Below are positions 887-42,168 of a DNA stretch of 64,000 bases, in pieces. Made by a program: the position numbers and the translations under genes. Position 1 is the first letter of the stretch. Each line of letters starts with the position of its first letter. Origin of the DNA: Candidatus Woesearchaeota archaeon (GTDB lineage: Archaea > Nanobdellota > Nanobdellia > Pacearchaeales > GW2011-AR1); contig CAZHOH010000001.1 in the NCBI GenBank assembly GCA_964534185.1, positions 19,669 through 83,668 of the forward strand, given 5' to 3'. The notes under the pieces are model-generated. The model had not been told where the DNA came from. It saw nothing but the letters and a program-made list of their open reading frames with translations, and searched no databases.

Positions 887-2461
887 CTAGGTCTCGAACT
901 CGACAAGGTAACGCAAAACGTTCTGGTCTTCTTGATAAACGATCCACTCGTTGTTCATCACATGGCTGTAATTCGCCTTGCCAAACACGCTGTGGCAACC
1001 CCCCGGGGGGGAGGTATACCCGCGCGGGCCTGGAGCCAGGAAGGGTTTCCCGAGGACGACGTCGCCGAGGAACATGAAGGCCTTGCGGCCTCGCACTGCG
1101 CCGCGCCCTCCGGACCAGAACGAGTTCTGTAGGCTACAGTATCCCGCGGCCTTCTTCCAGTCGTCGGCCCAGTACGTTCCAGGTCCGAACATGGCTCCTG
1201 TGATGGCTACGCCCACCAGCTTCTTCGGCATCATCAGGCTCTTGGACAAGATTCCGCTGACATTGACGGAGCGGGTGCCGTGGAACAGCAGGGCGGTTCT
1301 GGAGTCCCTATGGGCCGAGAGCGTCCCGTTCAGGTCGGGTCGCGAGCGAGGCGAGAACATAGGCTTCTCCCGGGAACTGGGCTTCTGCGCGGCAATCTGC
1401 GCCTGCTTGGCGTCGAACCGATGGCGGCAGGTCGGCTTGTTCGCCTCCCAGATGTTATGGACCTTCATTTGCCCAAGTCCCCTGTGGAGGTTTCGCGTCG
1501 CCCGGGGCAGGAAGTCCATGATCCACTTGCCTTCCCCCCGGGGGTCAAGCCAGCGCATCTCGAGGTCTATCCCATCCAGGGGATTGCGGGTCATGTCGTC
1601 GATGTCCTCGAGGCTGGTGGACAAGGCTTGCTCGAACGCGTCAAGGTCCTGTTGCCATGTCAGGATGTTCTTTTGCGACAGAACCCACGTGGACTCGTCC
1701 GCGCCGACGGGCTTGACCTTCGGGATGCGCGAGTAGAGCAGCCGACTGAATTCTCTCAGCCGCTTGTCCTTGACCTGACGGTCAGGGTCGTCGCCTACTT
1801 TCGACAGCCGCTTCAGGGCCTCCGTGAGGATGTGCCTACCTTCGTTGATGGCATCCTGGGTAGGGATGCTGTCGTCCGCCATCGAGTTGCGCGTGTAGTT
1901 GGCGGTCGCTACGTTTAGGTCGTGCATCAACTGCATGACCTTCGGATCCGGCAGGGAGTCCGCGCGCCTCGCCTTGCTCGACTTCTTGGTTTTCTTGGCG
2001 GGAGCGTCTCCCGTCTGAATCTTCTTCGCCCCGGGCAATCCGGTCGACCTGGTTGCCTGCGGGCGGACGAGGTAGCAGTCCTTGCCCTTTTTTGCCCGCA
2101 GGGCCTGTATCCCGGAGATCTTCGTCCATTCTCCGCGCTTGTCATTCTTGCTGTGCAGTTGCTTCTCGTATGCCTTCCGCGCCTCGTCCTCGCACATGGC
2201 CATGACGAACTGGAAGTCCGGACGGGAAGCGCCGGTGCGGCCCCACTCGAAATAGGCGTACCATTCCCCCGTCTGCTTGGATCTGACGACGGCCCCGTGG
2301 TAGAACTTGTTGGTGTCCCGTCCGTCCTGGGTGAAACATCCCAGGTCAGCGACCCCAGTGTCCTCGAACTCCCCATCCTTGACCGCAGGAGGGCCAAAGC
2401 ACTCGAAGTCATCGGGGCCATGGCAAGCAGGAAACTGACGTTTTGGTAGTTTGGTAGCCAT
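887..2461 (-). CDS. poly(ADP-ribose) polymerase-like protein (WGR domain + PARP catalytic domain)
   Basis: 524-aa ORF starting at ATG 2461. WGR motif GEWYAYFEWGRTGAS near the N-terminus. C-terminal PARP fold with an intact H-Y-E triad (LLFHGTRS, GPGTYWADD, NNEWIVYQ). Confidence 0.8.
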   Translation of the reverse strand: MATKLPKRQFPACHGPDDFECFGPPAVKDGEFEDTGVADLGCFTQDGRDTNKFYHGAVVRSKQTGEWYAYFEWGRTGASRPDFQFVMAMCEDEARKAYEKQLHSKNDKRGEWTKISGIQALRAKKGKDCYLVRPQATRSTGLPGAKKIQTGDAPAKKTKKSSKARRADSLPDPKVMQLMHDLNVATANYTRNSMADDSIPTQDAINEGRHILTEALKRLSKVGDDPDRQVKDKRLREFSRLLYSRIPKVKPVGADESTWVLSQKNILTWQQDLDAFEQALSTSLEDIDDMTRNPLDGIDLEMRWLDPRGEGKWIMDFLPRATRNLHRGLGQMKVHNIWEANKPTCRHRFDAKQAQIAAQKPSSREKPMFSPRSRPDLNGTLSAHRDSRTALLFHGTRSVNVSGILSKSLMMPKKLVGVAITGAMFGPGTYWADDWKKAAGYCSLQNSFWSGGRGAVRGRKAFMFLGDVVLGKPFLAPGPRGYTSPPGGCHSVFGKANYSHVMNNEWIVYQEDQNVLRYLVEFET

Positions 2462-15821: not shown

Positions 15822-18065
15822 TCAGTTGTCAATTTCTTGATCCACGTCCACCCACTGGTTGGCCAAGGGGTAGATGACCTTCATGATCGCCTTGTCAATT
15901 CTATGGCTTTTCCCGTTGATCATGTGCCATATTACCCCCCTCAAAACGGCCGGGGCATCTTTCTGGGCGATTCCTAGCTTCTTCTTGGCCTGCGAGTCGC
16001 CCTTGTCGTAGTGCTTGGCCAGAAAGTCGTTGGCCATGGCCAAGATCCTAGACTTTGCCTCGTCGTACTGGGACTCGATCTTGTCCTTGTATTGCTCGGC
16101 CAGTTCGCGCATTTCCTCCGGAATCTCGGCCATTCGAGACTCCGAGACCTTGCCGTCCGACATCGCCTCCCACATCAAGATGGGCGAGAGGCCCATCATG
16201 ACCTTCGACATGTCCTTGTACCAGTCGGTCTTGACCTTTACCCTGCGGCCGTCCTGAAACCTTATGACGTACCCCTCGAAGTGCTTGGCTTTACTCGCCA
16301 CCTCCAGGCAGTCTTCCAGGCTCAGCGAGTCGTAGCGCCGAACGACATGCAAATCGGCCAGTCTGGCCCACTCCTCGACCAGGTCGCGCGGGTACTCCTC
16401 CCCGGTATGGCGGTTGAAGGCCGCCAGCACGTAGAGCCCCGTCTCGTCGTAGTCCAGGATGATCTTCTGGTCATGATTGATGATCTCGAAGACCAGCGTC
16501 GCCTCGTCCGGCAAGGCCGACAGGTTCTTGCGCGAGATGTACTGTGTGGCCCACTGCGACCCAGGGGAATGGAACGACCCCCGGCTGGCCACCTTGTACT
16601 CGCCCTGGTGGCGGTAGAGGACGCCAAGCCATCCATCCAGCTTCTCGTAGACCTCGTAGGGCTTGTCCCACGGGAGGTTCTCGCGAAGGGTCTCCTCGCG
16701 CTCCCCGAGGTTGAAGAACTTTGGAAACGCCCAGGCCACGCACTCCCCCGTCTCAAGATCATAGATGTGGCCACGGCAGTTCAGCGTCACGTCGTCCCAG
16801 GCGCGATCGAATACACACTGGTCGGTATAGGTGTAGATCGCCAGCCTGTCGTCGTCCGTCCTGTCCCCGCGCAGCAGGCCCGCCTCCATGTACGCCTCCC
16901 TGCGGGCGACGTGCTCGTGGGGGTTCTCCTTACACCCGGGGAAGGAGTTCGTCGCGTAGGCGCGCTTGGCCTGGACGTAGTGGGGCCGCTGGGTAGCGGA
17001 GTCCCAGAACTTCAGGTACCCGCCGAACACGCAGCCGCCGTCAAGGTGGGCGATGTTGTTATAGCATGGCCCCGCGGGGTCGGGGTTGTGCCCGAAGAAG
17101 ACCCTCGGGGCGTCGGACGGCCATAGACGGTTCCACAAGATCCCCGTCTGCGCGTCGAAGTAGGAGTCCCCTCCGTAGTAGCGCATGTAGAGGCAGTCGG
17201 ACCTGAACTGCTCGTCCGGGTCTCGCGTCGGGTCGAATCCCGCGTGGACAACGTAGCCATGGGGAACCCGGAGGATCAGTGGGCAGCCCTTGAGGAAGGA
17301 GACGAACTCATCCTTTACCTGCTCGCCGTCCTCGTCCTGCTGGAACGAGTCGATCGTTGCCTGCAGGCCATGGGCTAGCTTGACCGGGTTGCCCTTGGCC
17401 CAGCGCAGGAACTTGTCCTCGTGGTTTCCAAGGACCATGTGGAGGTTGAGGGACATGAGGTGTCGCACCACCCCCAAGGGGTCTGGCCCTCGGTCGATGA
17501 CGTCCCCTACCGAGACGAGCACGTCCTGCTCGGGACGAAACCCAAGCTCGACGAGGCCCTGCTGAAACTCGTCATAGCACCCGTGTATGTCGCCGACGAT
17601 GATGTAGCGGCGGCCCCCGATCTCATCGCGGACGTCCTTAACGAGGACGCTGCACGGGGCTTCGCCCTCTACTGTCAACTCGTCGGCCTCCCTCCTCGAT
17701 GGCGCCTGGAACTGCGAGAAGTACATGCCGAGGGCCTTTCCCGCGTTCTCCGGGCGCAGCGTGGGATGTTTGCCACGCGAGGCGATCCTCTCGCGGCACA
17801 CGTCGCAGTTCTCGTTCAGCCATACGATCTTAGTGTGATAACCGGCCTTCTTGGCGGGAGACAGGTACCGGCGCCGCTGCTGGCGATTGTGGTTGATGCG
17901 GTCGACGACGACGTTGTCCCCGCGCGCCACTGCCTCCTCGAACAGGCGCAGGTGATCCTTGCCCTGATCGTCCTGGGAAACCCGCACGTAGCCCTTGAGG
18001 TTCTTGTCGCAGTAAGTCGTCTTGCCCGACCCCTGCGGGCCAACCATCAGCACGAGATCGCTCAT
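15822..18065 (-). CDS. trifunctional RNA-repair-type enzyme: P-loop polynucleotide kinase + metallophosphatase + RNA ligase (Pnkp-like domain order)
   Basis: 747 aa with ATG at 18065 and AAGGAGG upstream. Walker A GPQGSGKTT. Calcineurin-like motifs GDIHGC, GDVIDRG and GNHE. C-terminal ligase motifs EKLDGW (KxDG), FEII, EGYVIR and KVKTDWY. Confidence 0.75.
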   Translation of the reverse strand: MSDLVLMVGPQGSGKTTYCDKNLKGYVRVSQDDQGKDHLRLFEEAVARGDNVVVDRINHNRQQRRRYLSPAKKAGYHTKIVWLNENCDVCRERIASRGKHPTLRPENAGKALGMYFSQFQAPSRREADELTVEGEAPCSVLVKDVRDEIGGRRYIIVGDIHGCYDEFQQGLVELGFRPEQDVLVSVGDVIDRGPDPLGVVRHLMSLNLHMVLGNHEDKFLRWAKGNPVKLAHGLQATIDSFQQDEDGEQVKDEFVSFLKGCPLILRVPHGYVVHAGFDPTRDPDEQFRSDCLYMRYYGGDSYFDAQTGILWNRLWPSDAPRVFFGHNPDPAGPCYNNIAHLDGGCVFGGYLKFWDSATQRPHYVQAKRAYATNSFPGCKENPHEHVARREAYMEAGLLRGDRTDDDRLAIYTYTDQCVFDRAWDDVTLNCRGHIYDLETGECVAWAFPKFFNLGEREETLRENLPWDKPYEVYEKLDGWLGVLYRHQGEYKVASRGSFHSPGSQWATQYISRKNLSALPDEATLVFEIINHDQKIILDYDETGLYVLAAFNRHTGEEYPRDLVEEWARLADLHVVRRYDSLSLEDCLEVASKAKHFEGYVIRFQDGRRVKVKTDWYKDMSKVMMGLSPILMWEAMSDGKVSESRMAEIPEEMRELAEQYKDKIESQYDEAKSRILAMANDFLAKHYDKGDSQAKKKLGIAQKDAPAVLRGVIWHMINGKSHRIDKAIMKVIYPLANQWVDVDQEIDN

Positions 18066-18083
18066 CTTGCCTCCTTGCCGGGT

Positions 18084-18112
18084 ATTCTACCAACGCACGA
18101 CAGGTTCGGCAA
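18084..18112 (-). promoter_or_regulatory. candidate sigma70-type promoter (-35 TTGCCG, 17-nt spacer, -10 TAGAAT)
   Basis: Read on the minus strand, immediately upstream of the ribosome-binding site of the kinase-phosphatase-ligase gene. Confidence 0.4.
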
Positions 18113-18122
18113 CAGCCGGAAA

Positions 18123-19112
18123 TCAATCGTCGATGCGGCTCAATAGGTCTGATTTGAGCGCGTCGGGCAATGCCTTCAAAATAAGCAGCCATTCCTCTGT
18201 GTTTTTGACGGGATGAAGAGTGAATATCTCGTTGGCCCTTGAAATGGCTTGATTTGCGACCCCGGGGCCTACGCGACCCTCAGCCACGTCGTAATGGAGC
18301 CTTTTCTCGTCCTCGTAATAGCAGACTCTCTCGGATAAAGGTTTGGTTTTTCGAGCCTCAAATCTAGCCTTTCTCAGATATATACCGAAGAACAACTCGC
18401 TGCTAGTAATCGTATTGTCACGCATGACGAGAGGGAATGTGTTGCCTGGGATCTCATTCAGGACGAGAGATACAGCCCTGCGTGATAGCCACCAGAAATG
18501 GCCCTGAAGAGAATGCAGGCAACCTATGTTAGGAACGTCTCTATGGTTCCTCTGCCATTGCTCCGATGCATTGTCGTACCTCTTTCTGATCAGTTTGGGC
18601 AGGTAGCGCACCAGTAAGCCTGACACGTCATACGGGGCAGCATCATGGCGCAAGATCAGGGTGTCCGGGTCTACGACGGCCAGAAAATCCGAGTCGCCCT
18701 GATTGATGAATTTACGAAAAATGTCCCTGTACGAGGAGAAGAGGTGATGCCTGTTGTCTCCGGCAAAGACGCTCAGCGGTAGTCCTACGTCGGGCAGTTT
18801 CCTTTCGCGACGCTGGCATATCCATACATTACCAACGTTTTGAAAGGCGGTAACGGCGAGCCTGAGGCATCTGTGGATGACCTCGTCCGGCTCGTCATAG
18901 ACCAAAGCAGCCACGTCTATCTTCATTTTTCTTCTAGGGGCGCCTCCCGTCGCAAGCACCGAACCGATCCCCTCGACCTCAACCTGCTTGGCCTTGGCCT
19001 TGGCCTTGGCCTTGGCTTTGGCCGGAGGATTGAGCGAGAAGCCCCAGCACCTCTCAGATCCGTAGGAGCAACCTCGTCCCCCGGGGGACGAGGTTTTTCT
19101 TTGTCGAGCCAT
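18123..19112 (-). CDS. leader-bearing protein, possible GT-A glycosyltransferase
   Basis: Starts with the shared leader MARQRKTSSPGGRGCSYGSERCWGFSLNPPA, then (AK)n. The body carries FLAVVDPDT (DxD-like). The functional assignment is weak. Confidence 0.6.
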   Translation of the reverse strand: MARQRKTSSPGGRGCSYGSERCWGFSLNPPAKAKAKAKAKAKQVEVEGIGSVLATGGAPRRKMKIDVAALVYDEPDEVIHRCLRLAVTAFQNVGNVWICQRRERKLPDVGLPLSVFAGDNRHHLFSSYRDIFRKFINQGDSDFLAVVDPDTLILRHDAAPYDVSGLLVRYLPKLIRKRYDNASEQWQRNHRDVPNIGCLHSLQGHFWWLSRRAVSLVLNEIPGNTFPLVMRDNTITSSELFFGIYLRKARFEARKTKPLSERVCYYEDEKRLHYDVAEGRVGPGVANQAISRANEIFTLHPVKNTEEWLLILKALPDALKSDLLSRIDD

Positions 19113-19159
19113 GTTGCCTCCTACCAGCCTGTTGGGATGCCGAGAGAAAAATCCCTTCC
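19021..19159 (-). repeat. conserved 5' UTR + leader cassette, copy A
   Basis: Covers about 45 nt upstream of the ATG (including GGTAGGAGGCAAC) plus about 31 codons. It contains the 26-nt perfect palindrome 19070-19095. A few mismatches separate it from copies B and C. Confidence 0.9.
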
Positions 19160-19167
19160 AGGAGATG

Positions 19168-19197
19168 TTACATTCAACTTCAAGTGGCCCGTATAAT
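19168..19197 (+). promoter_or_regulatory. candidate promoter giving a leaderless dcm transcript
   Basis: -35-like TTACAT at 19168-19173. -10 TATAAT at 19192-19197. Exactly 6 nt separate the -10 from ATG 19204, and there is no SD sequence. Confidence 0.35.
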
Positions 19198-19203
19198 TAC
19201 GGA

Positions 19204-20346
19204 ATGAACATCGTATCGCTGTTTACGGGAGCCATGGGGCTAGATCTGGGGCTAGAGGCCGCGGGCTTCCAGGCCGAGGTATGCGCCGACACCGACCGGT
19301 TCTGCCGCGAGACCATCGCCGCCAACAAGCCAGAGTCCAGGATCCTCGATGACGTCGCCAAGGTAACGATAGACACGGCGCCGCGAAACCCCTGCATAGT
19401 GGCAGGGGGGCCTCCCTGCCAGTCATGGTCGACGGCCGGCAGGCGCAAGGGGTTCGACGACCCCCGGGGGGAACAAGTCCTAGAGTTTGGGCGGGTGGTT
19501 GCCGACTTGCGGCCCCGCTTTTTCGTGATGGAGAACGTGCGCGGACTCACCTCCATGCTGACCGGCGACAACCGCTTGGCCATAAACGTCATAGAGGAAG
19601 AGTTCGAGTCCATCGGCTACAAGGTGGTCCGCGGCGTGCTGAACGCGGTCGACTATGGAACCCCACAGTTTCGGGACAGACTCATCATGATCGGATCCCG
19701 CGACGGCGAAGACATCTTCCTGCCATTGCCCACGCACTTCCAGAAACACCAGGAAGAAAGCATGAGGTGGGTGACTCTTGGCAAAGCCCTCCAGGGCATA
19801 GCCATAGATTCCCCGGGGGACTTCCAGGAATTCTCGCCCCGGCGCAAATCATGGCTGGAGAAGATCCCCCCGGGGGGGAATTGGAAGAGCCTGTCGGAGC
19901 AAGACCAGAGGAAGGCCATGGGAGAGGCCTACAACTCTGGGGGAGGCAAGACAGGCTTCTTCCGCCGGTTGTCCTACGACGAGCCCTCCCCGACGCTGGT
20001 GACCTCGCCGACGCAGAAATCCACGATTTTGTGCCACCCGGAGAAAACCCGCCCCCTAAGCACGCTGGAATACGCGCGGATACAGGACTTCCCCCGGGGG
20101 TGGAGCATACGGGGGAACACAACGGAAGTCTACAGGCAGATAGGGAACGCCGTCCCCGTCAGGCTTGGGCGCGCAATCGGGCAGGCGTTGCTCTCGACCA
20201 TGAGCAAAAGCCACGTGGTAAAGGCCTCCCGCGTGCGCAAAGACGCCAGCGAGGAAGAAAGGACGCCAGTCCGCCCGCGCAAGAGAGCGGAGGAAGAAGA
20301 GCTCACCAAAGCAGGCATGGAGGCCTGGGGGATGCAAGATGTTTGA
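19204..20346 (+). CDS. dcm: DNA (cytosine-5)-methyltransferase
   Basis: Trimmed to ATG 19204 (MNIVSLFTGAMGLDLGLE, motif I). Also GGPPCQSWS (motif IV), FVMENVRGL (VI), QFRDRLIMIG (VIII) and GNAVPV (X). Confidence 0.9.
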   Translation: MNIVSLFTGAMGLDLGLEAAGFQAEVCADTDRFCRETIAANKPESRILDDVAKVTIDTAPRNPCIVAGGPPCQSWSTAGRRKGFDDPRGEQVLEFGRVVADLRPRFFVMENVRGLTSMLTGDNRLAINVIEEEFESIGYKVVRGVLNAVDYGTPQFRDRLIMIGSRDGEDIFLPLPTHFQKHQEESMRWVTLGKALQGIAIDSPGDFQEFSPRRKSWLEKIPPGGNWKSLSEQDQRKAMGEAYNSGGGKTGFFRRLSYDEPSPTLVTSPTQKSTILCHPEKTRPLSTLEYARIQDFPRGWSIRGNTTEVYRQIGNAVPVRLGRAIGQALLSTMSKSHVVKASRVRKDASEEERTPVRPRKRAEEEELTKAGMEAWGMQDV

Positions 20347-21124
20347 CGATTTGAACGTAACCACCGAAGTAAAAAAGGCGTGGGTTAACCGATTCAAAGC
20401 ATTTGAACACGGAACTGCCTACCTTCTTCCATACAAGGTCAAACAGATCCGCAAAGTAGTTGTTCGCGCCGTGGAACCAGAATACGAACTTGAAATGTCA
20501 TCCGGTAACAAGGTTATAGCCGACCTAAAAAACCAACTGACGCCTTTCTTCTCGGTCAACAGCCAGCTAGACGCAATGCTCAGGCTTCCTGAGGAAACGT
20601 TGCGCGCAATCAAGGAGGCCGGACTGATCGGCAAGGGCATGGCCCGAAGGGACATGGTGCACCCTGGATTCTCGCGGCTGGAGGACGCCGTCTCCATCAA
20701 CGTCAAGACCATAGTCAAGTATCCCCGGGATACTGCCCTGATAATCGTGGTGTCCTGGAACAAGCCTTGGAAAGGCAGAATGGCCAATGATCCCGTCAAC
20801 TCAATCTACGCAACTACGGTCGGCAAGGTCAGGGACCTTGTTGCGGACCGGCCTCTTGTTCACTGTTACAAGAGACGTTTGCCCGTAAAGGACGGGGTCG
20901 AAGTATACCCGAGCACCGTGGAAGAGCTCTGTTACTCGCCGATCAATGACGAGAATGGAGAAAGAAACTCAGCGGCATCGGCCATTCTGGACATCAATGA
21001 CTTCAAAAGGATCGCGACCTTCGACCCCGATTGGCTTGAAGAAACAAAACGTGTTGGCGAACGCTTGCACGAACAAGCCCTTCAGGACAAGAAAAAAGAA
21101 CTAACCGACTTCCTGGGCTTCTGA
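20339..21124 (+). CDS. hypothetical protein (261 aa), translationally coupled to dcm
   Basis: ATG at 20339 overlaps the dcm stop by 8 nt. No motif recognised. Confidence 0.6.
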   Translation: MFDDLNVTTEVKKAWVNRFKAFEHGTAYLLPYKVKQIRKVVVRAVEPEYELEMSSGNKVIADLKNQLTPFFSVNSQLDAMLRLPEETLRAIKEAGLIGKGMARRDMVHPGFSRLEDAVSINVKTIVKYPRDTALIIVVSWNKPWKGRMANDPVNSIYATTVGKVRDLVADRPLVHCYKRRLPVKDGVEVYPSTVEELCYSPINDENGERNSAASAILDINDFKRIATFDPDWLEETKRVGERLHEQALQDKKKELTDFLGF

Positions 21125-21163
21125 TGTTAAAACGAGCCCCCTCCACGTCCCCCCGGGGCGCCA

Positions 21164-21327
21164 GGGAAGGAATTTTTCTCTCGGCATCCCAACAGGCTGG
21201 TAGGAGGCAACATGGCTCGACAAAGAAAAACCTCGTCCCCCGGGGGACGAGGTTGTTCCTACGGATCCAAGAGGTGCTGGGGCTTCTCGCTCAATCCTCC
21301 GGCCGCGGCCCCACGTCAGGCCAAGGT
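21164..21327 (+). repeat. conserved 5' UTR + leader cassette, copy B
   Basis: No mismatch noted by eye against copy C (reverse complement) over about 160 nt. It contains the palindrome 21229-21254. Confidence 0.9.
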
Positions 21328-23593
21328 CGAGGCCAAGGTCAAGGCCAAGGTCAAGGCCAAGAACAAGGAGGAAGAGACGGTCATCGAACTAGCCTCATTG
21401 AACCCGGACGTCGTCTACTCGACCCAAGGCGGCGGGTTCGGCGACCACTGGCTCCTCTGCGGCGCTCTCCTACAGGCAAGTGAACTGCATGGCAAGCCAT
21501 TCAGGCTGCGCCGGGGCAAGACGAGGGGTGAACCAAGGCCTTTCGCCGTGGACTACCAGGAGTACTTCGACACGCAAGGAGAGATCGTCGAGTCGGACAG
21601 CGAAGCCAAAGTCGTATTCTTCTCCAGGGATGGCGGCAAGAACGACCTCGAAAGGCTCATGAAAGACGGGTATGACAATCCTGTCCCGGAGCGCATCATC
21701 CCCTGGAACTACCTTTTCGAGGTTCCCCTTGCCAAGACAAGAAAAACACACCTTGGATTGCGCTCCAGGGTCATCGCCTATCAGTTCAGGGCCAGATCCA
21801 GAAAGGACATCAAGGAATGCGCCCCCGGGGAGGAGGATCGCTTCCTGGAGGAGGCGGCGCTCGCCGGCTATAGAACGATCGAGGTAGGGAAGCATGTCCC
21901 CTTGGATAGATGTTTGGAAGTTCTGTCATGGTGCGAGTTCTACGTCGGCATAGACACAGGACCTACCCACCTCGCGCTCAACGTCGGCGCGCCGACGTGG
22001 GTCGTCCGCAACGGCGCCGACCTTGACTTTACATACAAGCATAGGAACATCACCGCGCTTCCGCGCCTCGGGGACGCAGGCTCTCTCCTGACGGCCTGCC
22101 AGCCACAAAAGAAAGCCTCCTTCCTCGTCCCCTGCAAGAACCGCTTGGAGTTTGCCAAGCAGACTCTCCCTCTGCTGGATTTCTTCGTGGGACAGGGGCA
22201 CGAGGTCATATTCGTGGACTACGATTGCCCGCAACGATCAGGGGAGTGGGTCAAGAGCAACCATCCCGGCGTGACGGTCATCGAGGTAAAGGACAAGAAA
22301 AAGTATAACGCTGGAGAGGCTCGCAACCTAGCGGCCGCGGCGGCTAGGAACGACTGGCTTTGCTGGATGGACTGCGACATAAAAGTCCATCCGAACTTCC
22401 TGGCCGAGCTGTGCCGCCTGGAAAAAGGCCAGTTCCTGTTCTTCGCCAAGAACGACCTCGTCCCCCGCAGGGGGATGGGTGGCTTGATGGCATGCTCCCG
22501 AGACGCGTATTACGAAGCAGGAGGCTACAGCAGTTACTACGACGAGTACGGCGGCAAAGACATAGAGTTCAAGTACAGGCTCTTCCAGAACGGAGAGGAG
22601 CCGCTGCAAGTCAACCCGCTCTGCGTCGAGCACGTCCCGCACCCTGATCATCTAAGGGTTCAGTTCTACGACAAGAAGAACCGACGGCTCGCGATCAAGG
22701 ACAGCAACGCGGCGCTCAAGCAACGCATGCGGCACTTCGCAAAGAGAAACGAGCCACCCCCGTGGCAATTGAACTATGACAAGGCCGAGTACTCTCAGTT
22801 CTTCAACAAGGTCATCGTCAAACAACTTAGCCTTCATGTCACCGACCATTGCAACTTCAACTGCATCGGGTGCAACCACGCTTCCCCATACTACGAGCCG
22901 AACAATCTCGACCCGGTATGCTTCTCGGAGCCGCTCCAGAAACTGGGGGAATTCTGCTACGCCAAGGAAATACACCTAGTTGGAGGAGAACCCTTCCTGC
23001 ACCCTGACCTGTACGGATTCATCCGCTCCATCAAGGAGAGCAACAAGGTAAGCGACTTCATTCGCCTCTATACAAACGGCTTCTGGCTGTCAGAGCGCGG
23101 CCTGCTGCGTCACGCGCCAGTCCTCGACCAAATAGATGCGCTTCATGTCAGCATGCACCCCGAGTCCCCCGGGGGCGAGGTTGTTGAACAGATGCTGAGA
23201 ACGATCAAGAAGAAACATCACATAGTGGCCCAGAAACACCGTAACGACAGGTTTTACAAGGTCGGGTTTCGAGAATCCCCCGCTGGGAGAGGATCCTGTC
23301 CCGTCAAGAAGTGCATGCACCTGTTGCCTGACGGAAGACTGGTCAAATGTGCCGTCGCGGGCTACTACGCCCCGAAAAGCGAGGATGTTACGAAAGGCTT
23401 CATGGACCATTCCGGATCCGCTTTCTACGATGTGTCCCAGGGAAATTGCGAAAGCTTTGCCAAGTGGTATAATGGCATGGCTCAGTGCTGCAGGTTCTGT
23501 GGCTACGCGGAAGACTCCATACCATACGTGGGCAGAGTTGCAGGAGTTGGTCATGTCAAGAATCAGCGGAACAAAAGAGTGGGCGACGGATAG
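21212..23593 (+). CDS. leader-bearing multidomain protein: GT9-like (GT-B) + GT2-like (GT-A) + radical SAM domain
   Basis: 793 aa. Shared leader plus a K/V/A/E repeat linker. GIDTGPTHLALNVGAPTWVV is heptosyltransferase-like. FLVPCKN...IFVDYDCP...WMDCD is GT2/DxD. LHVTDHCNFNCIGCNH (CxxxCxxC, nt 22850-22873) with LVGGEPFLHP. Confidence 0.7.
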   Translation: MARQRKTSSPGGRGCSYGSKRCWGFSLNPPAAAPRQAKVEAKVKAKVKAKNKEEETVIELASLNPDVVYSTQGGGFGDHWLLCGALLQASELHGKPFRLRRGKTRGEPRPFAVDYQEYFDTQGEIVESDSEAKVVFFSRDGGKNDLERLMKDGYDNPVPERIIPWNYLFEVPLAKTRKTHLGLRSRVIAYQFRARSRKDIKECAPGEEDRFLEEAALAGYRTIEVGKHVPLDRCLEVLSWCEFYVGIDTGPTHLALNVGAPTWVVRNGADLDFTYKHRNITALPRLGDAGSLLTACQPQKKASFLVPCKNRLEFAKQTLPLLDFFVGQGHEVIFVDYDCPQRSGEWVKSNHPGVTVIEVKDKKKYNAGEARNLAAAAARNDWLCWMDCDIKVHPNFLAELCRLEKGQFLFFAKNDLVPRRGMGGLMACSRDAYYEAGGYSSYYDEYGGKDIEFKYRLFQNGEEPLQVNPLCVEHVPHPDHLRVQFYDKKNRRLAIKDSNAALKQRMRHFAKRNEPPPWQLNYDKAEYSQFFNKVIVKQLSLHVTDHCNFNCIGCNHASPYYEPNNLDPVCFSEPLQKLGEFCYAKEIHLVGGEPFLHPDLYGFIRSIKESNKVSDFIRLYTNGFWLSERGLLRHAPVLDQIDALHVSMHPESPGGEVVEQMLRTIKKKHHIVAQKHRNDRFYKVGFRESPAGRGSCPVKKCMHLLPDGRLVKCAVAGYYAPKSEDVTKGFMDHSGSAFYDVSQGNCESFAKWYNGMAQCCRFCGYAEDSIPYVGRVAGVGHVKNQRNKRVGDG

Positions 23594-24347
23594 CGTCAAC
23601 TGCTGCCTTGGCTGCAGCCACAACTGCAGGTACTGCTACGCCCGGGCCAACGCGATGCGCTTCGGCAAAATATCATCCCCCGGGGAATGGTCCGATGAAC
23701 AGGTCAATGACAAGGCCCTCGAGAAGAAGTTCGGGAAGAAGGCCGCGGGGCGACGGTTCATGTTCCCGACCACCCACGACATTACTCCCACGAACGTCGA
23801 CGCCTGTCTGAAACTGCTGAAGAACGTCCTCTCCCCCGGGAACGAGGTTCTGATCGTCAGCAAGCCCCACCTCGAGTGCATCTCGCGCCTGACCGACGAG
23901 CTGGTCCAGTTTAAGGGACAGTGCATGTTCCGGTTCACAATCGGGGCCTCTGACGACGACATCCTGTCGTTTTGGGAGCCAGGCGCCCCTGGATTCAAAG
24001 AGAGGTTGGATTCTCTGCGTCTCGCTCGCGACCGCGGGTGGCAGACCTCAGTCAGCGCAGAACCCATGCTTGACGCGGACAATGCCTACGATCTCTTCCA
24101 TGCCCTGGAGCCATGGGTCACCGACAGCATCTGGATTGGCAAGATGAACCGCATCACCCTTCGTGTCATCGACAATGATGACCCCCTGGTCTCGAGGCAC
24201 GTCGCGAAGATAGAGGCGGGCCAGACTGACGAGCGGGTGAGGCAGATTTACGAGATGCTGAGGAACGAGCCGAAGGTCAGGTGGAAGGAGTCGTACAAGA
24301 AGGTCACTGGGATCGAACTATCCCAAGAGGCCGGACTTGACATTTGA
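23553..24347 (+). CDS. radical SAM protein (COG1533/SplB-like by motif)
   Basis: Trimmed to ATG 23553, which has AGGAG upstream; it overlaps the previous stop. Motif NCCLGCSHNCRYCYA. Confidence 0.6.
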   Translation: MSRISGTKEWATDSVNCCLGCSHNCRYCYARANAMRFGKISSPGEWSDEQVNDKALEKKFGKKAAGRRFMFPTTHDITPTNVDACLKLLKNVLSPGNEVLIVSKPHLECISRLTDELVQFKGQCMFRFTIGASDDDILSFWEPGAPGFKERLDSLRLARDRGWQTSVSAEPMLDADNAYDLFHALEPWVTDSIWIGKMNRITLRVIDNDDPLVSRHVAKIEAGQTDERVRQIYEMLRNEPKVRWKESYKKVTGIELSQEAGLDI

Positions 24348-24599
24348 GCCAATCCTGTTGCATTTTGCAACCTCTCGCAAGGATTGTGCGTGAACTAGGT
24401 TGTGCGCCGCTCCCGTCGCTGGAGGCAAAACCTGTTCCATCGTTGTGACACAAACCGAGTAAACCATAGCCGGTTCCACGGGTGTAGGCACTACGTAGGG
24501 CGCAGGTTTCGTTGTCACGAAGTTAAGGATCTCGCGATTCCAGTTTTCAGTGAAGTTGGATAGATTCACACAGATATCAGGTGGCACGGTCTCTGGATG

Positions 24600-32350: not shown

Positions 32351-32713
32351 ATGAAGGGTCAGCCATGCGAGAACCAGACAACGAAAGGAAATATCGTGGG
32401 GGACACAGAAGATACACAGGCGATCAATGAGGCGATCAATGAGGCCATCGAACTGAATATAATGGGACAGGTTGGAGATCGCGTTCCAGACTATTGTTCG
32501 TCGCTGGACGCCGTAGCGGAGGCAGAAGCCAAGGCAAGAGAGATGGGCCTATGGCACGAGTATGGAAGGGCGCTGAAGGATCTGCTCCTAGGCAACGCCG
32601 ACCTGCTTGTAATGAGCACCGAGCAGTTCATGACAGGAGCTGCGGCCACGGCCGAACAGAGATCCCGGGCCATCCTGTCCGCTGTTAAACAAGCAAGGAA
32701 AGGAAAGAAGTAA
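32351..32713 (+). CDS. hypothetical protein (120 aa)
   Basis: ATG at 32351. Its C-terminal tail SAVKQARKGKK is shared with the next gene product. Confidence 0.5.
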   Translation: MKGQPCENQTTKGNIVGDTEDTQAINEAINEAIELNIMGQVGDRVPDYCSSLDAVAEAEAKAREMGLWHEYGRALKDLLLGNADLLVMSTEQFMTGAAATAEQRSRAILSAVKQARKGKK

Positions 32714-32748
32714 TGGCCAGGAGATTCTTCTACGACACAGAGTTCATA
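32675..32748 (+). repeat. 74-bp direct repeat, copy 1 (gene junction)
   Basis: CTGTCCGCTGTTAAACAAGCAAGGAAAGGAAAGAAGTAATGGCCAGGAGATTCTTCTACGACACAGAGTTCATA. Confidence 0.9.
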
Positions 32749-33252
32749 GAATATCCACCCCTGTTGAAGGACGGTCGATCCCGGAAGGGAACGATCGACC
32801 TAATAAGCATTGGCATCGTGTCAGAGGAAGGGGAGACGTTCTACGCCATCAACAGCCACTTCGATCCGACCATGGCCAACCAGTGGGTGACCGACAACGT
32901 CCTCTCGAAGCTCCCCTCGAGGGAGTCGCCGGAATGGATGTCCCTGCCGGCCATGAAGAAGAGGGTGCTAGGCTTCCTGCGGCCATCGAATGATGACCCG
33001 GTCGAGTTATGGGCATACTACGGGGACTATGACCACGTGGCCCTCTGCTGGTTATTCGGATCCATGGTCGAATTGCCAGAGGGAATGCCAATGCTAACCA
33101 TGGATCTGAAGCAACTTGCCAAGCACCTCGGGGATCCTGACCTACCCGAGCAAGGGGAAGGAGAGCACGATGCCCTCGAGGACGCTAAATGGAACCTCGA
33201 GGTCTTCGAGTTTCTGTCCGCTATTAAACAAGCAAGGGAAGGAAAGAAGTAA
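32713..33252 (+). CDS. DEDDh-family 3'-5' exonuclease
   Basis: FFYDTEFIE (Exo I), YYGDYDHVAL (Exo II) and HDALEDAKW (Exo III, H-x4-D). Confidence 0.7.
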   Translation: MARRFFYDTEFIEYPPLLKDGRSRKGTIDLISIGIVSEEGETFYAINSHFDPTMANQWVTDNVLSKLPSRESPEWMSLPAMKKRVLGFLRPSNDDPVELWAYYGDYDHVALCWLFGSMVELPEGMPMLTMDLKQLAKHLGDPDLPEQGEGEHDALEDAKWNLEVFEFLSAIKQAREGKK

Positions 33253-33287
33253 TGGCCAGGAGATTCTTATACGACACAGAGTTCATA
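33214..33287 (+). repeat. 74-bp direct repeat, copy 2
   Basis: Same sequence as 32675-32748, with 2 substitutions and a 1-nt insertion. Confidence 0.9.
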
Positions 33288-38339: not shown

Positions 38340-38939
38340 TCAACTCTTGCGGCGCTTTTTCTTTGGCCTTGGCCTTGGCATGCGCCTCGCTGGCCTCAAG
38401 TCCTCGCCTCTTAGCAATTTCAGGTGTTTCTCGATCATTCCTTTCTTGACGGGGCCGATTTTATCGACGAACAACACCCCGTCCAGATGGTCGATCTCAT
38501 GTTGTATCGCTTGAGACAATAGCCCCGTGGCGTTCATTCCCTGCTTGACGCCGGTCACGTCTTGGTATTCCACGGACACCTTCGAAGCCCGCCGAACGTG
38601 TCCCGTCACCTTCTGCAGGGGGAGGCTCAGGCAGGCCTCTTGCATGCTCTGCTCGCCAGACGACTCCACCACGACGGGGTTCACCATCGCGAAAACGCTC
38701 ATCTTCTCGCCATCGGGGACGCGAAGGACTATGATTCTCTTCGTCTCGCCAACCTGTGGCCCCGCGAGGCCAATGCCCCTCTCCAGCGACAGGGTATGAA
38801 GCATGTCGTGCGCGAGGAAGGCGACGGACTCGTCGAAGGACGTAACCTCCTTGGCCTCCCCCCGGAGGACGGGATCCGGATACGTGAGAATCTTCAGGGC
38901 GCTTGGCTGGCGCGAAGGCGCGGAAGAGGTATCGGCCAT
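38340..38939 (-). CDS. def: peptide deformylase with basic C-terminal tail
   Basis: GIGLAGPQVG, EACLSLP and HEIDHLDG. The tail is RRMPRPRPKKKRRKS. Confidence 0.9.
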   Translation of the reverse strand: MADTSSAPSRQPSALKILTYPDPVLRGEAKEVTSFDESVAFLAHDMLHTLSLERGIGLAGPQVGETKRIIVLRVPDGEKMSVFAMVNPVVVESSGEQSMQEACLSLPLQKVTGHVRRASKVSVEYQDVTGVKQGMNATGLLSQAIQHEIDHLDGVLFVDKIGPVKKGMIEKHLKLLRGEDLRPARRMPRPRPKKKRRKS

Positions 38940-38976
38940 GACTTCTCCGTTCTAGTCGAACATGTTAGGCGGCTCG

Positions 38977-41070
38977 TCACCACGTGGCGGCCAATCGAAA
39001 GGATAACACTCCGAAAGCGCACGCAGCAGCAACTGGGACGACGCCATTTCCCAGCAGGCGTAGCTGGTCTGTTCGACGCTCGTGGTCGAGTCTGTCCATC
39101 CCGGAGGCCACCCCATCAGCCATTCTACAAAGAGCGGGTTCAAGAAGCGGCTCGGCTTCAAGGACTTGCTCCCATTCCCTGAAGTCCCCTGGCCCCGGGG
39201 GCGCGAGGGGGAGGATTGTTCCAGATGGGCCTCGAAAACCTGCGACCACACCTTTGCCAGCGTCTCGACATGAACCTGATGGCTGCCGCTCTCCGACTGC
39301 CCCTTCCGAAGAACCTGCTCGACGCTCATAGCCCTGCCCCCGTTGGGCACGTTCGGCGTTGGCCAGAGACAGTTCCACACGTCGCTCCACATTTTCGCTA
39401 CGACCTGGAGGCTCGTCGGAGTCTTCCGGGGGCCTCCCTTCATGCGCCGCTTCATCGCCATGTGGGCCCCAGGGGTCTTGTTGTCGTCGTTCGCCACCGC
39501 CGTTGGCCACAGCGGCCCATTCTGCCGCCCGGAGGATGGCCTCTTCTCCCGGTCTCGCGCCGGCGATGAAGAGACGCTTTCGGACATGGCACAGTCCGAC
39601 TTCCGCCGCCGAGAATAGTCCTGCTTCAACGTCGTAGCCCAGGCCTTGTAGGTCTCTGGCGACCTCGTCGAAGCCGACGTTAACGTGGTTGGGTACGTTC
39701 TCGAAAAAGAGGACGCGGGGTTCTGCCTCCTGGACGATCCTCCTGACGCTGGGCCAGAGGTGGCGGGGATCCTCCTTGCCCTTGATTCTCCCGGCACAGG
39801 AGAACGGCTGGCAGTTGTGGACGACAGTTCCGTCTGCCACGTAAGACTCATCGTCTCGGACTGCGATGTTATAGACTGTGTCCTTGCCAACAGGGGCGTT
39901 TGAGCTGACGCGCTTCCATCCAAGACCTTGGTCGACGAAGGATGCACGATTGCGATCAGGGATGGACACGATCCATGACGGCCTTTGTCTGACGAGTCTG
40001 CCTTCGATGACCTTATCTTTTGCGCTTTGGCAGCATCGAACGGCAGCAATGACCCCAAATGCTCGCTGAGAGAGCAGAGCGACACTGAGAGCAAGGGCCT
40101 TGCTCGCGGACTGAACTCGACGAAATCCCCCCTTTCCAACAGGGTTCTTATGTGCTCCTCCGTCTCCAGACAAGCATCCCTCAAGCAAGGCCCTGGCCTT
40201 TCCCTCTCCGAGGGAAAGGTACTTTCCGGGGATACGCTTGCCGCGGGCATGTCGTCCGAATTGCTGCAAGAACTTGAAGAAACATGTTCTTGTAATGGCG
40301 AATCTGGTTGTTGTTCGCTCCTCGCTCCTGTAGGCGCTAAGCCCTGCTTCTTGTATTCGCCTTTCAAGTTCGTCTGCCTCTGGTCTGTTGCAACAGATGT
40401 TGACACGACCATTTCTGTGGGAAGGAGATTTTTGGAGCCAACCGTCAGCCAAGTACCTCCCGACGAGCCACCAGAATTCTTTTGATCGTTTGTCTGGGCG
40501 CACTGGAGGGAGAGCCTGAGCCACCCAATGCGCTCCGGTGAGTTCCTTTGCCTGCACCCAATCAGGGGAACCAAAAGATCGCTGTCTTCCCTTTTGTTTG
40601 CACCTAGCGAAGAAGGGGTGCTCTTCTGTGCATCTGATTCCCGGGGTTCCTTGCGCCTTGATTTCCCTGATTGGGGCACCGTCCTTGCGCATGACCGCTG
40701 TGACTGGCTTCCATCTGGCTCGGTGGGTAAGGACCAGATCTCCAACTCGAACGTCTTCGATGGGGACATATCCTCGCTTGCATAAGACGAGGGTTCCTGA
40801 GACGAAGCACGGGTACCCTCCAGTGACGCAATCCACGACGCCACGCCATCTTCTGCCGTCGAAGGTCTTGGCATCCGTCCAAATAGGCGCGTCGTCCAGC
40901 CGCCCTTCTTCCATGCGTGATGCCAGTACTTCGATGGCATATCCTTCCCTCTCCACGTAGCAGACGACGCGAGAGCCTCCGACCGCCATTCGGAGTCCGA
41001 GCTCGAGTCCGCCGCCGCCGGAGCAGAGAGACAGAACGTTGAAGGTACGTATGCCCACATCTTTGTTCAT
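38977..41070 (-). CDS. dcm: DNA (cytosine-5)-methyltransferase interrupted by an intein
   Basis: Exteins: VLSLCSGGGGLELGL (motif I), GGYP|...|CQPFSCAG (IV, split), LFFENVPNHV (VI), HVRKRLFIAG (VIII) and LLGNGVVP (X). The spliced product would be about 365 aa. Confidence 0.85.
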   Translation of the reverse strand: MNKDVGIRTFNVLSLCSGGGGLELGLRMAVGGSRVVCYVEREGYAIEVLASRMEEGRLDDAPIWTDAKTFDGRRWRGVVDCVTGGYPCFVSGTLVLCKRGYVPIEDVRVGDLVLTHRARWKPVTAVMRKDGAPIREIKAQGTPGIRCTEEHPFFARCKQKGRQRSFGSPDWVQAKELTGAHWVAQALPPVRPDKRSKEFWWLVGRYLADGWLQKSPSHRNGRVNICCNRPEADELERRIQEAGLSAYRSEERTTTRFAITRTCFFKFLQQFGRHARGKRIPGKYLSLGEGKARALLEGCLSGDGGAHKNPVGKGGFRRVQSASKALALSVALLSQRAFGVIAAVRCCQSAKDKVIEGRLVRQRPSWIVSIPDRNRASFVDQGLGWKRVSSNAPVGKDTVYNIAVRDDESYVADGTVVHNCQPFSCAGRIKGKEDPRHLWPSVRRIVQEAEPRVLFFENVPNHVNVGFDEVARDLQGLGYDVEAGLFSAAEVGLCHVRKRLFIAGARPGEEAILRAAEWAAVANGGGERRQQDPWGPHGDEAAHEGRPPEDSDEPPGRSENVERRVELSLANAERAQRGQGYERRAGSSEGAVGERQPSGSCRDAGKGVVAGFRGPSGTILPLAPPGPGDFREWEQVLEAEPLLEPALCRMADGVASGMDRLDHERRTDQLRLLGNGVVPVAAACAFGVLSFRLAATW
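39814..40809 (-). mobile_element. intein (332 aa) with LAGLIDADG homing-endonuclease domain
   Basis: Starts CFVSGTLVL (Cys1). Block B is CTEEHPF. LAGLIDADG-like motifs LVGRYLADGWL and LLEGCLSGDGG. Ends VVHN, followed by a +1 Cys. Confidence 0.8.
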
Positions 41071-41097: not shown

Positions 41098-42120
41098 CTA
41101 CGGGGCCAGCCTCCTTTTGATTTCCTCGCGGACAAACACGCGCGTCGCGTCCAGTTTTTCCTGGAGAGTCATCTTATCCCGCTCCTTTCCCCAGTAGAGA
41201 ACGCTCACGTCGGGCCTGTCATGGAGCGGAAGCCATCCTGGCACGTATAGTCCCCAGAACTCGTCTACCGAGATCGCCGGCATACCAAAGGAAGGGGCAA
41301 GAAAGCCCCCGCCTCCCATGCTTAATGTAAACTCCGCCCCGCTCATTACCTCTAGCTGTCTCTGCAGGTACTCGGTTCGAACCGGCTTCTTCAGTGTCTC
41401 CAGAAACATAGTCTCGTTGCCAATCCTGTTACGGTCTACCCGATCCAGCCGATCTAGGCCCGTGTGTGGGGCCCAACCAACCCCGATGACTTCGTAGCCG
41501 TAGTGGTTGACCAACTCCTTTAATTCCAGCCATTCTAGGAAAGGCAGGCTCCTGCCTCCCGCCGTGCCACCAAACTCGTCTCCTTTCAGCCACCTTTCGG
41601 ACAAGCAGGGTATGAAGCACACGTACTTGCGAGGATCCTTCTTGACCCAGGACCAGTCCATCTTCGCATTGACCAGTTCCCTCGGGAAGTCCCTCCGCAT
41701 CTTGGAAAATAACTTCAGAACGGCGCTCTTTCCCGTCCCCTCCTTGGCCGGGAAATGATATGAATCGCTGAACTGGCTCCAAACCTCTTCCTTCAGGTCG
41801 TCAAGCCACTCGGAATGTATATTGACCTCGTCTCCGAGCCACCGCTTCAACAGGAAAGCTGGCCATATGCGGGTGACGCATACCTCGCCGAACTCACCGC
41901 CGTGAATGATGTTCCTAAGATCCAGATCTATCTTCTCCCTGGGACGGCGCAGAGGGGAGGCCTCAACCTCCTCCTCAACCTTGGCCTCAACCTCCTCCTC
42001 CTCAACCTTGGCCTGACGTGGGGCCGCGGCCGGAGGATTGAGCGAGAAGCCCCAGCACCTCTTGGATCCGTAGGAACAACCTCGTCCCCCGGGGGACGAG
42101 GTTTTTCTTTGTCGAGCCAT
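41098..42120 (-). CDS. leader-bearing GT9-like (GT-B) glycosyltransferase-like protein
   Basis: Trimmed to ATG 42120 (AGGAGG upstream). Shared leader MARQRKTSSPGGRGCSYGSKRCWGFSLNPPAAAPRQAKV, then an E/V/K/A repeat. MGGGGFLAPSFGMPAISV near the C-terminus. Confidence 0.6.
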   Translation of the reverse strand: MARQRKTSSPGGRGCSYGSKRCWGFSLNPPAAAPRQAKVEEEEVEAKVEEEVEASPLRRPREKIDLDLRNIIHGGEFGEVCVTRIWPAFLLKRWLGDEVNIHSEWLDDLKEEVWSQFSDSYHFPAKEGTGKSAVLKLFSKMRRDFPRELVNAKMDWSWVKKDPRKYVCFIPCLSERWLKGDEFGGTAGGRSLPFLEWLELKELVNHYGYEVIGVGWAPHTGLDRLDRVDRNRIGNETMFLETLKKPVRTEYLQRQLEVMSGAEFTLSMGGGGFLAPSFGMPAISVDEFWGLYVPGWLPLHDRPDVSVLYWGKERDKMTLQEKLDATRVFVREEIKRRLAP

Positions 42121-42168
42121 GTTGCCTCCTACCAGCCTGTTGGGATGCCGAGAGAAAAATTCCTTCCC
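42005..42168 (-). repeat. conserved 5' UTR + leader cassette, copy C
   Basis: Reverse complement matches copy B over about 160 nt. It contains the palindrome 42078-42103. Confidence 0.9.

Follow-up and report, generated by a model that had tools for sequence, protein, structure and literature searches.

A repeated, apparently translated gene head with an internal hairpin precedes three putative sugar-enzyme genes in a phage-like genome

Introduction

How do genes for unrelated proteins come to share one and the same beginning, and what is this beginning for? The question is raised by a 64-kb stretch of contig CAZHOH010000001.1 (the whole of the DNA analysed, hereafter the window), which appears to belong to a large uncultivated phage and in which three putative sugar-pathway genes, here termed A, B, and C, start with a nearly identical cassette made up of a 5′ untranslated region (UTR), a ribosome-binding site, and the first codons of a protein. 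A preliminary description of the sequence had drawn attention to this cassette and suggested four roles for it, as a targeting or packaging signal, an acceptor or priming peptide, a regulatory 5′ region, or a recombination site, none of which is established by our analysis.

Our results indicate that a common start has indeed been acquired by these genes, an unusual occurrence. The reading that we favor, that of a recently spread and translated gene head with a function at the level of a hairpin, has an even chance of being correct as a whole; its structural and evolutionary part is very likely, and its functional part is tentative, standing somewhat below an even chance. The possible roles, whether in regulation, targeting, or recombination, are not mutually exclusive.

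The repeated cassette

Exact alignment confirmed the three copies at the places previously given, and resolved each of them into a discrete module of UTR, ribosome-binding site, and leader that runs in frame into the long open reading frame (ORF) of an otherwise unrelated gene (Table 1). The conserved block opens GGAAGG(A/G)ATTTTTCTCTCGGCATCCCAACAGGCTGGTAGGAGGCAAC-ATG, with a UTR of 48 nt rather than the approximately 45 nt first estimated, includes a Shine-Dalgarno (SD) sequence at the same spacing in each copy (AGGAGG-CAAC-ATG, or AGGAGG-N4-ATG), and continues with the 31-codon leader MARQRKTSSPGGRGCSYGS(K/E)RCWGFSLNPPA. This SD is typical for the genome; for example, the Pnkp/RNA-ligase gene has AGGAGG-CAAG-ATG. 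The reported near-identity of B and C was borne out, with a single mismatch at the 3′ edge (GTC/GTT), and these two copies alone share 28 nt more (21305-21332 in B), coding AAPRQAKV. Copy A differs from both at four positions, as expected from the few differences noticed earlier: one in the UTR, two synonymous (TGC/TGT and TCT/TCC), and one that exchanges E for K (GAG/AAG). The UTR and the coding part are not distinguished by their conservation, which is of the same degree in both. A 31-nt core of the cassette had three matches in the window versus 0 in 100 shuffles. Copies A and B form inverted repeats (140 nt, 97%, 2005 nt apart), as do B and C (169 nt, 99%, 20667 nt apart), and A and C are direct repeats.

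Table 1. Positions of the cassettes, their hairpins and linkers, the genes that they head, and associated segments in the window.
Feature	Position	Strand	Description
Cassette A	19020-19159	-	ATG 19112-19110, 31 codons; 97% identical to B over 140 nt, 4 substitutions
Cassette B	21164-21332	+	UTR 21164-21211; AGGAGG 21202-21207; ATG 21212; leader codons 1-31 at 21212-21304
Cassette C	42000-42168	-	ATG 42120-42118; 99% identical to B over 169 nt
Hairpin A	19070-19095	-	Same sequence as hairpin B; terminator-like on the + strand, antisense to gene A
Hairpin B	21229-21254	+	AACCTCGTCCC-CCGG-GGGACGAGGTT; 11 bp, 4-nt loop, -20.5 kcal/mol, codons 6-15
Hairpin C	42078-42103	-	Same 26-nt sequence as hairpin B
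Linker A	18987-19023	-	6 nt x 6.2, (GCCAAG)n = KAKAKAKAKAK; in frame, joins leader to body
Linker B	21318-21368	+	12 nt x 3.7, AKVE/AKVK units; in frame, joins leader to body
Linker C	41961-42000	-	12 nt x 3.3, VEEE/VEAK units; in frame, joins leader to body
Gene A	18123-19112	-	329 aa; body from residue ~62, GT-A-type fold, VDPDT (DxD) and HPVK motifs
Gene B	21212-23593	+	793 aa; weak GT9-like N-domain, GT2, radical SAM
Gene C	41098-42120	-	340 aa; no family match
dcm-ORF261 operon	19204-21124	+	dcm 19204-20346, ORF261 20339-21124; between inverted copies A and B
Extra segment at locus B	21127-21381	+	255 nt versus 5 nt in relative L003; net +250 nt, not a multiple of 3
Extra segment at locus C	41908-42409	-	Contains cassette C with its linker, a small ORF (43 codons), and a degenerate duplicate of the 3′ end of the NTP-transferase gene

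Leader and enzyme body are joined in each gene by a linker that had been described as low-complexity and different in every copy; the difference stands, and the linkers are more exactly in-frame tandem repeats. They are the three top-scoring tandem repeats of the whole window, the period of each is a multiple of 3, and all of them contain V-E motifs (QVEVE, AKVE, EVE). All three junctions keep the frame through linkers of unequal length. The peptide deformylase gene of the window (38354-38386, minus strand) also ends in a (GCCAAG)-type KA repeat resembling the linker of gene A, which implies that such repeats arise elsewhere in the genome.

The bodies behind the linkers are of different kinds. 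The earlier suggestion that A is possibly a GT-A protein is supported by the fold predicted with AlphaFold2 (AF2), in which the body reaches a predicted local distance difference test (pLDDT) score of ~85 and finds GT6, mannosylglycerate synthase, and chondroitin synthase as Foldseek matches (E to ~1e-6), and by the DxD motif, which is conserved, as is HPVK. Gene B had been read as a fusion of GT9-like, GT2, and radical S-adenosylmethionine (SAM) domains, of which the latter two were recovered and the first is reduced to a weak, sub-threshold match. The GT9-like label previously given to C was dropped, as this protein has no family match and shares with the N-domain of B a single motif of 34 residues (hhalign probability 2.5%); its AF2 model was unusable (pLDDT 33).

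No additional or diverged copy of the cassette was detected in the 64-kb window by tblastn and small-word blastn, and blastn of the cassette against GenBank phages returned no copy. In IMG/VR, searches with a codon-degenerate leader pattern, the hairpin (26 nt), and an exact 41-mer revealed no cassette outside this genome, and the leader pattern had no match outside this genome in the GTDB representative genomes and JGI metagenomes. A search with the 40-aa leader in an index of 5.8 billion proteins also returned nothing, a result that is uninformative since the window's own P0001 and P0014, both indexed, were missed as well.

Repeats of this length can confuse short-read assemblers over the joins between flank and body, and an assembly artefact had been named from the outset as a finding that would invalidate the observation. 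However, the flanks of each copy are unique, each copy shows variants of its own, the ORFs run on in frame, and the public protein records of B and C begin at the cassette ATG and derive from two contigs. Furthermore, an independent k-mer assembly of SRR7048225 by Logan (L005, 2071 nt) is 100% identical to window positions 19123-21193 and reproduces the inner junctions of A and B, the cassette-body junctions lying outside this contig. It begins 30 nt past the copy-specific variant of A and ends 29 nt into cassette B; it therefore breaks exactly where the copies become identical, 30 nt beyond the last copy-specific base at both ends, as a graph with k=31 does at a true repeat, which argues against an artefact. 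We consider this explanation to be extremely improbable.

Relatives lacking the module

Homologue searches recovered one close relative for each of loci B and C, represented by metagenome contigs of 1.3-1.5 kb (L001 from JGI and L002 from Logan for locus C; L003 and L004 for locus B), and the module was absent at both loci. At locus C, the orthologous protein P0002 (280 aa, 78% identical) begins MIHLENCIHGGEFGEV, which aligns at residue ~63 of C, and its ATG overlaps the stop codon of the NTP-transferase gene; by blastn, 502 nt in the window (41908-42409) stand against 30 nt in L001, leaving 472 extra. At locus B, the relative encodes an orthologue of ORF261 (P0004, 83% identical), and the gene right after it begins MAAIELSSLSPDVIYSTQGGGFGDHWLL (MAAIELSSLSPDVIY in L003), aligned at residue ~56 of B. 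The ATG of this B orthologue overlaps the ORF261 stop codon (TAATG), and dcm, ORF261, and B form a single translationally coupled operon in the relatives. For locus A, a search of metagenomes with the body gave no close relative, and nine of nine distant homologues from a representative library of 1.8 billion sequences begin at A residues 55-73. Further relatives were found neither with B and C as queries in IMG/VR, nor with C by tblastn against phages, nor with an ORF261 alignment in GTDB and IMG/VR.

The window retains a trace of the compact arrangement: an ATG at 21124-21126 still overlaps the stop codon of ORF261 (TGATG), but the net insertion of 250 nt has put it out of frame with B. This relic, the compact and coupled state of the relatives, and the agreement of two loci with the wider A family suggest a gain of the module in this lineage rather than a loss in the relatives. 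The flanking genes are 79-84% identical in nucleotide sequence to their nearest relatives, versus 97-99% among the cassette copies, which implies that the module spread, or was last homogenized, well after the split from these relatives. The diverged flanks and the two module-free loci are thus in line with recent spread or with the recent gene conversion initially proposed on the basis of near-identity alone.

Locus C is more complex than locus B. Between the NTP-transferase gene and cassette C lie 241 nt (42169-42409, minus strand) that have no counterpart in the relative. Within them, the small ORF of 43 codons starts at the apparent ancestral start of C (ATG 42403), and the 3′ end of the NTP-transferase gene recurs in degenerate form at ~42224-42268.

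An insertion of this kind might also represent a selfish or neutral repeat, such as a miniature inverted-repeat transposable element (MITE) or a Rickettsia palindromic element (RPE), that was kept wherever ORF and start were restored. In-frame translated insertions are known from RPEs, and promoter-bearing MITEs of the Correia type can alter the expression of neighboring genes (PMC10969869). The cassette resembles these elements as a short, palindrome-bearing repeat whose ORF continues, presumably translated, into the host ORF in all three copies; its leader is predicted to be disordered and is unmatched, the module is absent from relatives, and coupled genes would tolerate between them an insertion that comes with an SD and ATG. 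However, the palindrome occupies 22 of ~150 nt, there are three copies rather than dozens, and these lie within 64 kb, all in frame with an SD and ATG at the 5′ ends of sugar-pathway genes, with no intergenic or mid-gene copy in the window. A MITE was rejected as a candidate because terminal inverted repeats are lacking (a search of 21110-21400 returned the central hairpin and pairings of C/G runs only), as are target-site duplications in the flanks. The unlike linker at each junction indicates, moreover, that every graft was a separate in-frame event and that all were fixed within a short time. A selfish or neutral origin therefore seems distinctly unlikely.

Use of the cassette start codon

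In B and C the cassette ATG must be used, since the old start is out of frame in B and apparently mutated in C, where the codon aligned to the start of the relative is AAG (KIDLD versus MIHLE), and no other in-frame ATG or GTG with an SD was found between leader and body of either gene. The shared layout thus breaks the stop-start coupling of B and C and leaves the cassette ATG as the sole usable in-frame start, from which translation of the leader follows; judging from the sequence, it would form an N-terminal tail of 55-60 residues. Gene A retains an internal ATG (M62), and may start there instead.

The comparison with the relatives as outgroup shows compact genes of a phage operon that were freed from translational coupling by a ready-made start region. 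Such a module can carry coding sequence along, making families of N-terminally tagged proteins in one step.

The hairpin within the leader

The leader-coding sequence of all three copies contains a hairpin that was absent from the preliminary description. Its stem is a perfect 22-nt palindrome with C5/G5 tracts, which begins 17 nt after the AUG and extends over codons 6-14. On the opposite strand, where TTTTTCTTTG follows it, the hairpin scores as a canonical intrinsic terminator; this signature occurs in the antisense direction only (AACCTCGTCCCCCGGGGGACGAGGTT and TTTCTTTGTC), with matches of the scan in copies A and B. Predicted folds of the cassette include a pairing that sequesters the SD (GUAGGA/UCCUAC) and an alternative pairing of the UTR with the left arm, neither of which is relied on here.

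The hairpin is centered on the motif CCCCCGGGGG, which occurs 17 times in the window against 0.14 expected from dinucleotide shuffles; among these 17 sites, the palindrome reaches into the flanks in the cassette hairpin alone. Further such sites precede cassette B (21151) and cassette C (42167).

The encoded peptide has no match to any Pfam family or to a structure in the PDB, and the leader is predicted to be disordered, residues 1-29 having a pLDDT <50 and no secondary structure in the AF2 model of A. A perfect palindrome of 22 nt cannot, on the sequence, be explained as a by-product of selection on a peptide. Together with the equally conserved UTR, the disordered and unmatched peptide, and the charge-reversing K/E change, it points to a selected function at the level of the nucleic acid, and the hairpin is the strongest hint in this direction. 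In the reading that we favor, the module most likely functions at the RNA or DNA level.

The excess of the palindrome is itself a property of the window. Positions of CCCCCGGGGG include 1000, 1535, 9399, 10520, 19461, 19867, 20091, 23166, 34379, 34662, 37785, 48107, and 48823, and CCCCGGGG is the most over-represented 8-mer (30 occurrences versus 3.1 under a third-order Markov model), compared with a single GGGGCCCC. Sites inside genes fall in all three codon frames, and one of the 30 lies in the sugar cluster of low GC content at third codon positions (GC3) past 49.5 kb. This iterated palindrome looks like HIP1. The relatives (5.8 kb in total) have no CCCCGGGG, and at three sites within dcm (19811, 19867, 20091) the window has perfect C4-7G5-7 palindromes where L003/L004 have imperfect ones (TCTCCGGGGGA, CCCTCCCGGGGGAAA, TTCCCCGGGAA), which suggests a lineage-specific drive perfecting the palindrome, possibly a bias similar to very-short-patch repair and tied to C5 methylases. 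ORF261 overlaps the stop codon of dcm by 8 nt, as vsr overlaps dcm in Escherichia coli. However, ORF261 had no match to Vsr or to any other entry in the family libraries or the PDB, and was rejected as a candidate Vsr, restriction enzyme, or invertase.

Possible functions

The favored reading, a portable gene head acting through its hairpin, would comprise the following steps. A module of 5′ UTR, strong SD, start codon, a disordered leader of 31 codons, and an in-frame repeat linker able to expand would have been transferred by recombination to the 5′ ends of three genes for sugar enzymes in this lineage of a large phage-like genome, whereby formerly coupled genes would become independent cistrons with a common translation-initiation region. 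The selected element would be the 11-bp hairpin, most likely acting as RNA or DNA. In the sense direction it could serve as a common operator bound by a regulator, or as an attenuator, coordinating the three genes; read from the other strand, it might serve as a strong terminator or insulator that shields the upstream genes from antisense read-through. The peptide would mostly be carried along as a passenger, which the repeat linker holds at a distance from the enzyme. The copies would remain near-identical through recent spread, or through gene conversion in a recombination-proficient genome, and an SbcD/gp47-like exonuclease encoded in the window provides a context for recombination. If the hairpin is an operator, the three genes would constitute a small post-transcriptional regulon of sugar-modifying enzymes.

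Several observations weigh against this reading. A promoter consensus scan of 17500-24500 identified no sigma-70-like site in or next to cassettes A and B, copy A has no recognizable promoter, and cassette C carries the common 48-nt UTR, which by inspection is devoid of a TAnnnT element. On the sense strand the hairpin is preceded by an A-run and followed by a weak U-tract (UUGUUCC), the whole cassette folds no better than shuffled sequences (z = -0.8 to -1.7) such that the hairpin alone stands out, and the three copies are too alike for covariation analysis. A purely regulatory module would hardly require 31 codons and a linker of 25-30 residues, and targeting peptides classically have this very arrangement, with a conserved peptide ahead of a flexible, variable linker and assorted enzymes. 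Of the three substitutions in the coding part, two are synonymous, which is weakly compatible with constraint on the peptide and not significant. The difference from the relatives, finally, is probably a gain in this lineage, although a loss in the relatives is conceivable.

These points lead to an alternative in which the leader is an N-terminal targeting or docking peptide that gathers three sugar enzymes at one place, for example inside the prohead, to be packaged and ejected, or at a phage compartment, a scaffold, or DNA, with the repeat linker as a flexible tether that may contain protease sites. The conserved 31-aa peptide, the variable low-complexity linker, and the unrelated enzymes match known targeting layouts, the recipients are sugar-pathway genes rather than random ones, and the V-E motifs of the linkers recall the sites of Glu-specific prohead proteases. 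In phage T4, capsid-targeting leaders of ~10 residues with an L/I-x-E cleavage site, shown by virion biochemistry on IPI-III and Alt, suffice for the packaging of foreign proteins, and the propeptides of IPII and IPIII are identical (PMC9026906). As in the present case, such a leader is a short N-terminal peptide common to unrelated phage proteins, it is portable, and its loci are evolutionarily plastic. However, the leader described here has 31 residues plus a linker, and a perfect palindrome in the DNA determines codons 6-14; the V-E motifs are off the T4 consensus, and no head, protease, or scaffold gene was present among the window ORFs scanned. The predicted disorder, without an amphipathic helix, the conservation of the UTR to the same extent as the coding part, and the reversal of charge in the sole amino-acid change also speak against selection for targeting, and an oxygen-sensitive radical SAM enzyme would be an odd virion cargo. 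We regard targeting as the role of the leader as unlikely, although it deserves serious consideration.

Two established types of address were specifically rejected. An encapsulation peptide for a microcompartment or encapsulin was ruled out by the missing amphipathic helix in the AF2 model, and inspection revealed no hydrophobic stretch, lipobox, or S/T-R-R-x-F-L-K motif of a Sec, lipoprotein, or Tat signal peptide.

Targeting could also be combined with the gene-head reading, the peptide acting as a portable address tag on a module spread by recombination, which would direct enzymes of the glycosyltransferase type to one destination, for example the inside of the capsid, a compartment, or their DNA or glycan substrate, with the hairpin doubling as a translational operator. 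This combination is rather unlikely in our view; if true, it would represent an undescribed targeting signal together with a mechanism that recruits new cargo genes, and would provide a natural portable tag for loading the virion or a compartment of an uncultivated phage.

A further role for the peptide would be that of an acceptor or substrate, either self-primed in the manner of glycogenin or serving as precursor for the radical SAM domain, comparable with ribosomally synthesized and post-translationally modified peptides. Ser, Thr, Tyr, and Cys are abundant in the leader, and B combines GT2 and radical SAM domains with weak matches to peptide-maturase families. These matches are nevertheless generic and far under the family cut-offs, a radical SAM domain is missing from A and C, the enzymes of relatives and homologues do without the leader, and the palindrome speaks against the peptide as the selected feature. 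An acceptor role is accordingly highly improbable.

Rearrangement and comparison with known systems

The geometry of the repeats (A/B and B/C inverted, A/C direct) would also suit substrates of DNA rearrangements, whether programmed or simply frequent. If A and B recombined, the dcm-ORF261 segment would be inverted together with its promoter and read into A and not B, recombination of B with C would invert 20.7 kb, and that of A with C would excise a 23-kb circle. The sole promoter-like site between A and B is indeed that of dcm, pointing to B (TTACAT-18-TATAAT, just 5′ of dcm and occupying most of the 44-nt gap that faces gene A), and A has no promoter of its own; repeats of >50 bp recombine readily in T4-type phages, giving mini-circles, and a recombination nuclease is present. 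Of the inversion proposed in the preliminary description, the inverted repeats themselves were thus upheld, yet no recombinase was found among the window ORFs scanned and there was no sign of a second orientation. No invertase or recombinase lies beside the repeats, ORF261 and dcm have no such domain in Pfam, PHROGs, or NCBIfam, known sites of site-specific inversion are much shorter than these repeats, the window has the orientation of the relatives at both loci B and C, and a deletion between A and C would take out genes such as DNA ligase. We consider rearrangement as the purpose of the copies to be very unlikely.

Invertible and variable gene systems provide a partial parallel. The vlp and vsa-type families of variable surface-protein genes in Mycoplasma have a 5′ region in common, ahead of in-frame tandem repeats, and the Mu G and P1 C segments are invertible tail-fibre segments. 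The cassette genes likewise have an identical 5′ UTR and N-terminal block, tandem repeats, and divergent C-terminal parts, and inverted copies could swap the expression context as in segments of the Mu G and P1 C type. They differ in that the shared block is no signal peptide, the bodies are cytoplasmic-type enzymes, every start is complete, and a recombinase is missing. In comparison with Hin, Gin, Cin, and shufflon systems, inverted repeats are present, but no dedicated recombinase occurs among the window ORFs scanned.

The PeSL (promoter-early stem-loop) mobile regulatory cassettes of T4-type phages are repeats of ~100 bp with a stem-loop of G/C tracts, an SD, and an ATG, and drive gene shuffling (PMC2839356; PMC4122927). 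The cassette shares with them a repeated module of at least 100 bp (three copies of 140-169 nt) at gene 5′ ends that includes an SD and start codon, a G/C-tract stem-loop, and homology for recombination including inversion and circles, and it marks insertion/deletion differences between close relatives (absent in L001/L002 and L003). In contrast, it has no sigma-70-like promoter, which is the defining feature of PeSLs; its stem-loop lies inside the ORF after the ATG rather than between genes, and is terminator-like in antisense only; and it runs through 31 translated codons and a linker, making protein fusions, with only three copies seen. PeSL cassettes and the capsid-targeting leaders of T4 are the closest analogues, the module working most like the former; it is a member of neither. 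By analogy with PeSLs, repeats of 140-169 bp will recombine in a genome with a gp47-like nuclease whatever their primary role. The repeats consequently predict genome isomers (inversions and the 23-kb circle), which is relevant to the assembly and interpretation of large phage genomes.

Genomic setting and further observations

The window encodes a PARP/WGR protein, radical SAM proteins, a PP2C, a sigma-70 factor, a Pnkp-phosphatase-RNA ligase fusion, a C5 DNA methylase, an NAD-dependent ligase, a peptide deformylase, an AAA ATPase, the SbcD/gp47-like exonuclease, phrog_5931, and, at 49-63 kb, a sugar cluster of the nonulosonic-acid type. The ligase is <30% identical to any GenBank phage ligase. 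A scan of the whole window yielded no Rfam family at the gathering score, and a tRNA scan of the window found none. Genes B and C are downstream of genes on the same strand, and gene A is divergent from dcm; the neighbors of C are a sugar nucleotidyltransferase gene on one side and a second C5-methylase-like gene on the other.

This latter gene, downstream of C (38952-41060, minus strand, 702 aa), matches a phage DNA-methyltransferase family in its C-terminal part only. Its orthologue in the relative (L001 1179-1508) reads ...GGYPC, then FVAGTLILCKRGYIPIEE, directly after methylase motif IV, and this insert in the C5 methylase of the relative looks like an intein. On the 3′ side of B, a second radical SAM gene follows on the same strand (23349-24347, plus). 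The kinase-phosphatase-RNA ligase (Pnkp/Rnl-like) protein is a three-domain fusion of 747 aa (15822-18065, minus), and the protein with PARP catalytic and WGR domains is encoded at 887-2461 (minus).

The sugar-biosynthesis cluster (49579-63099, minus) includes genes for a UDP-GlcNAc 2-epimerase, a DegT aminotransferase, a PseB/CapD-like dehydratase, a GNAT protein, a sulfotransferase-like protein, an FkbM methyltransferase, a SASA esterase, and GT2 paralogues. Its GC3 is ~0.5 compared with ~0.8 in the rest of the window, a composition that suggests recent acquisition.

One other repeat shared by gene heads, unrelated to the cassette, was observed at 32675-32748 and 33214-33287 (plus strand; 74 nt, 96%). 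It consists of 38 nt of UTR, the ATG, and 11 codons (MARRF[FL]YDTEFI, an exonuclease-like N-terminus) and heads tandem paralogues, the downstream copy apparently preceding a truncated ORF.

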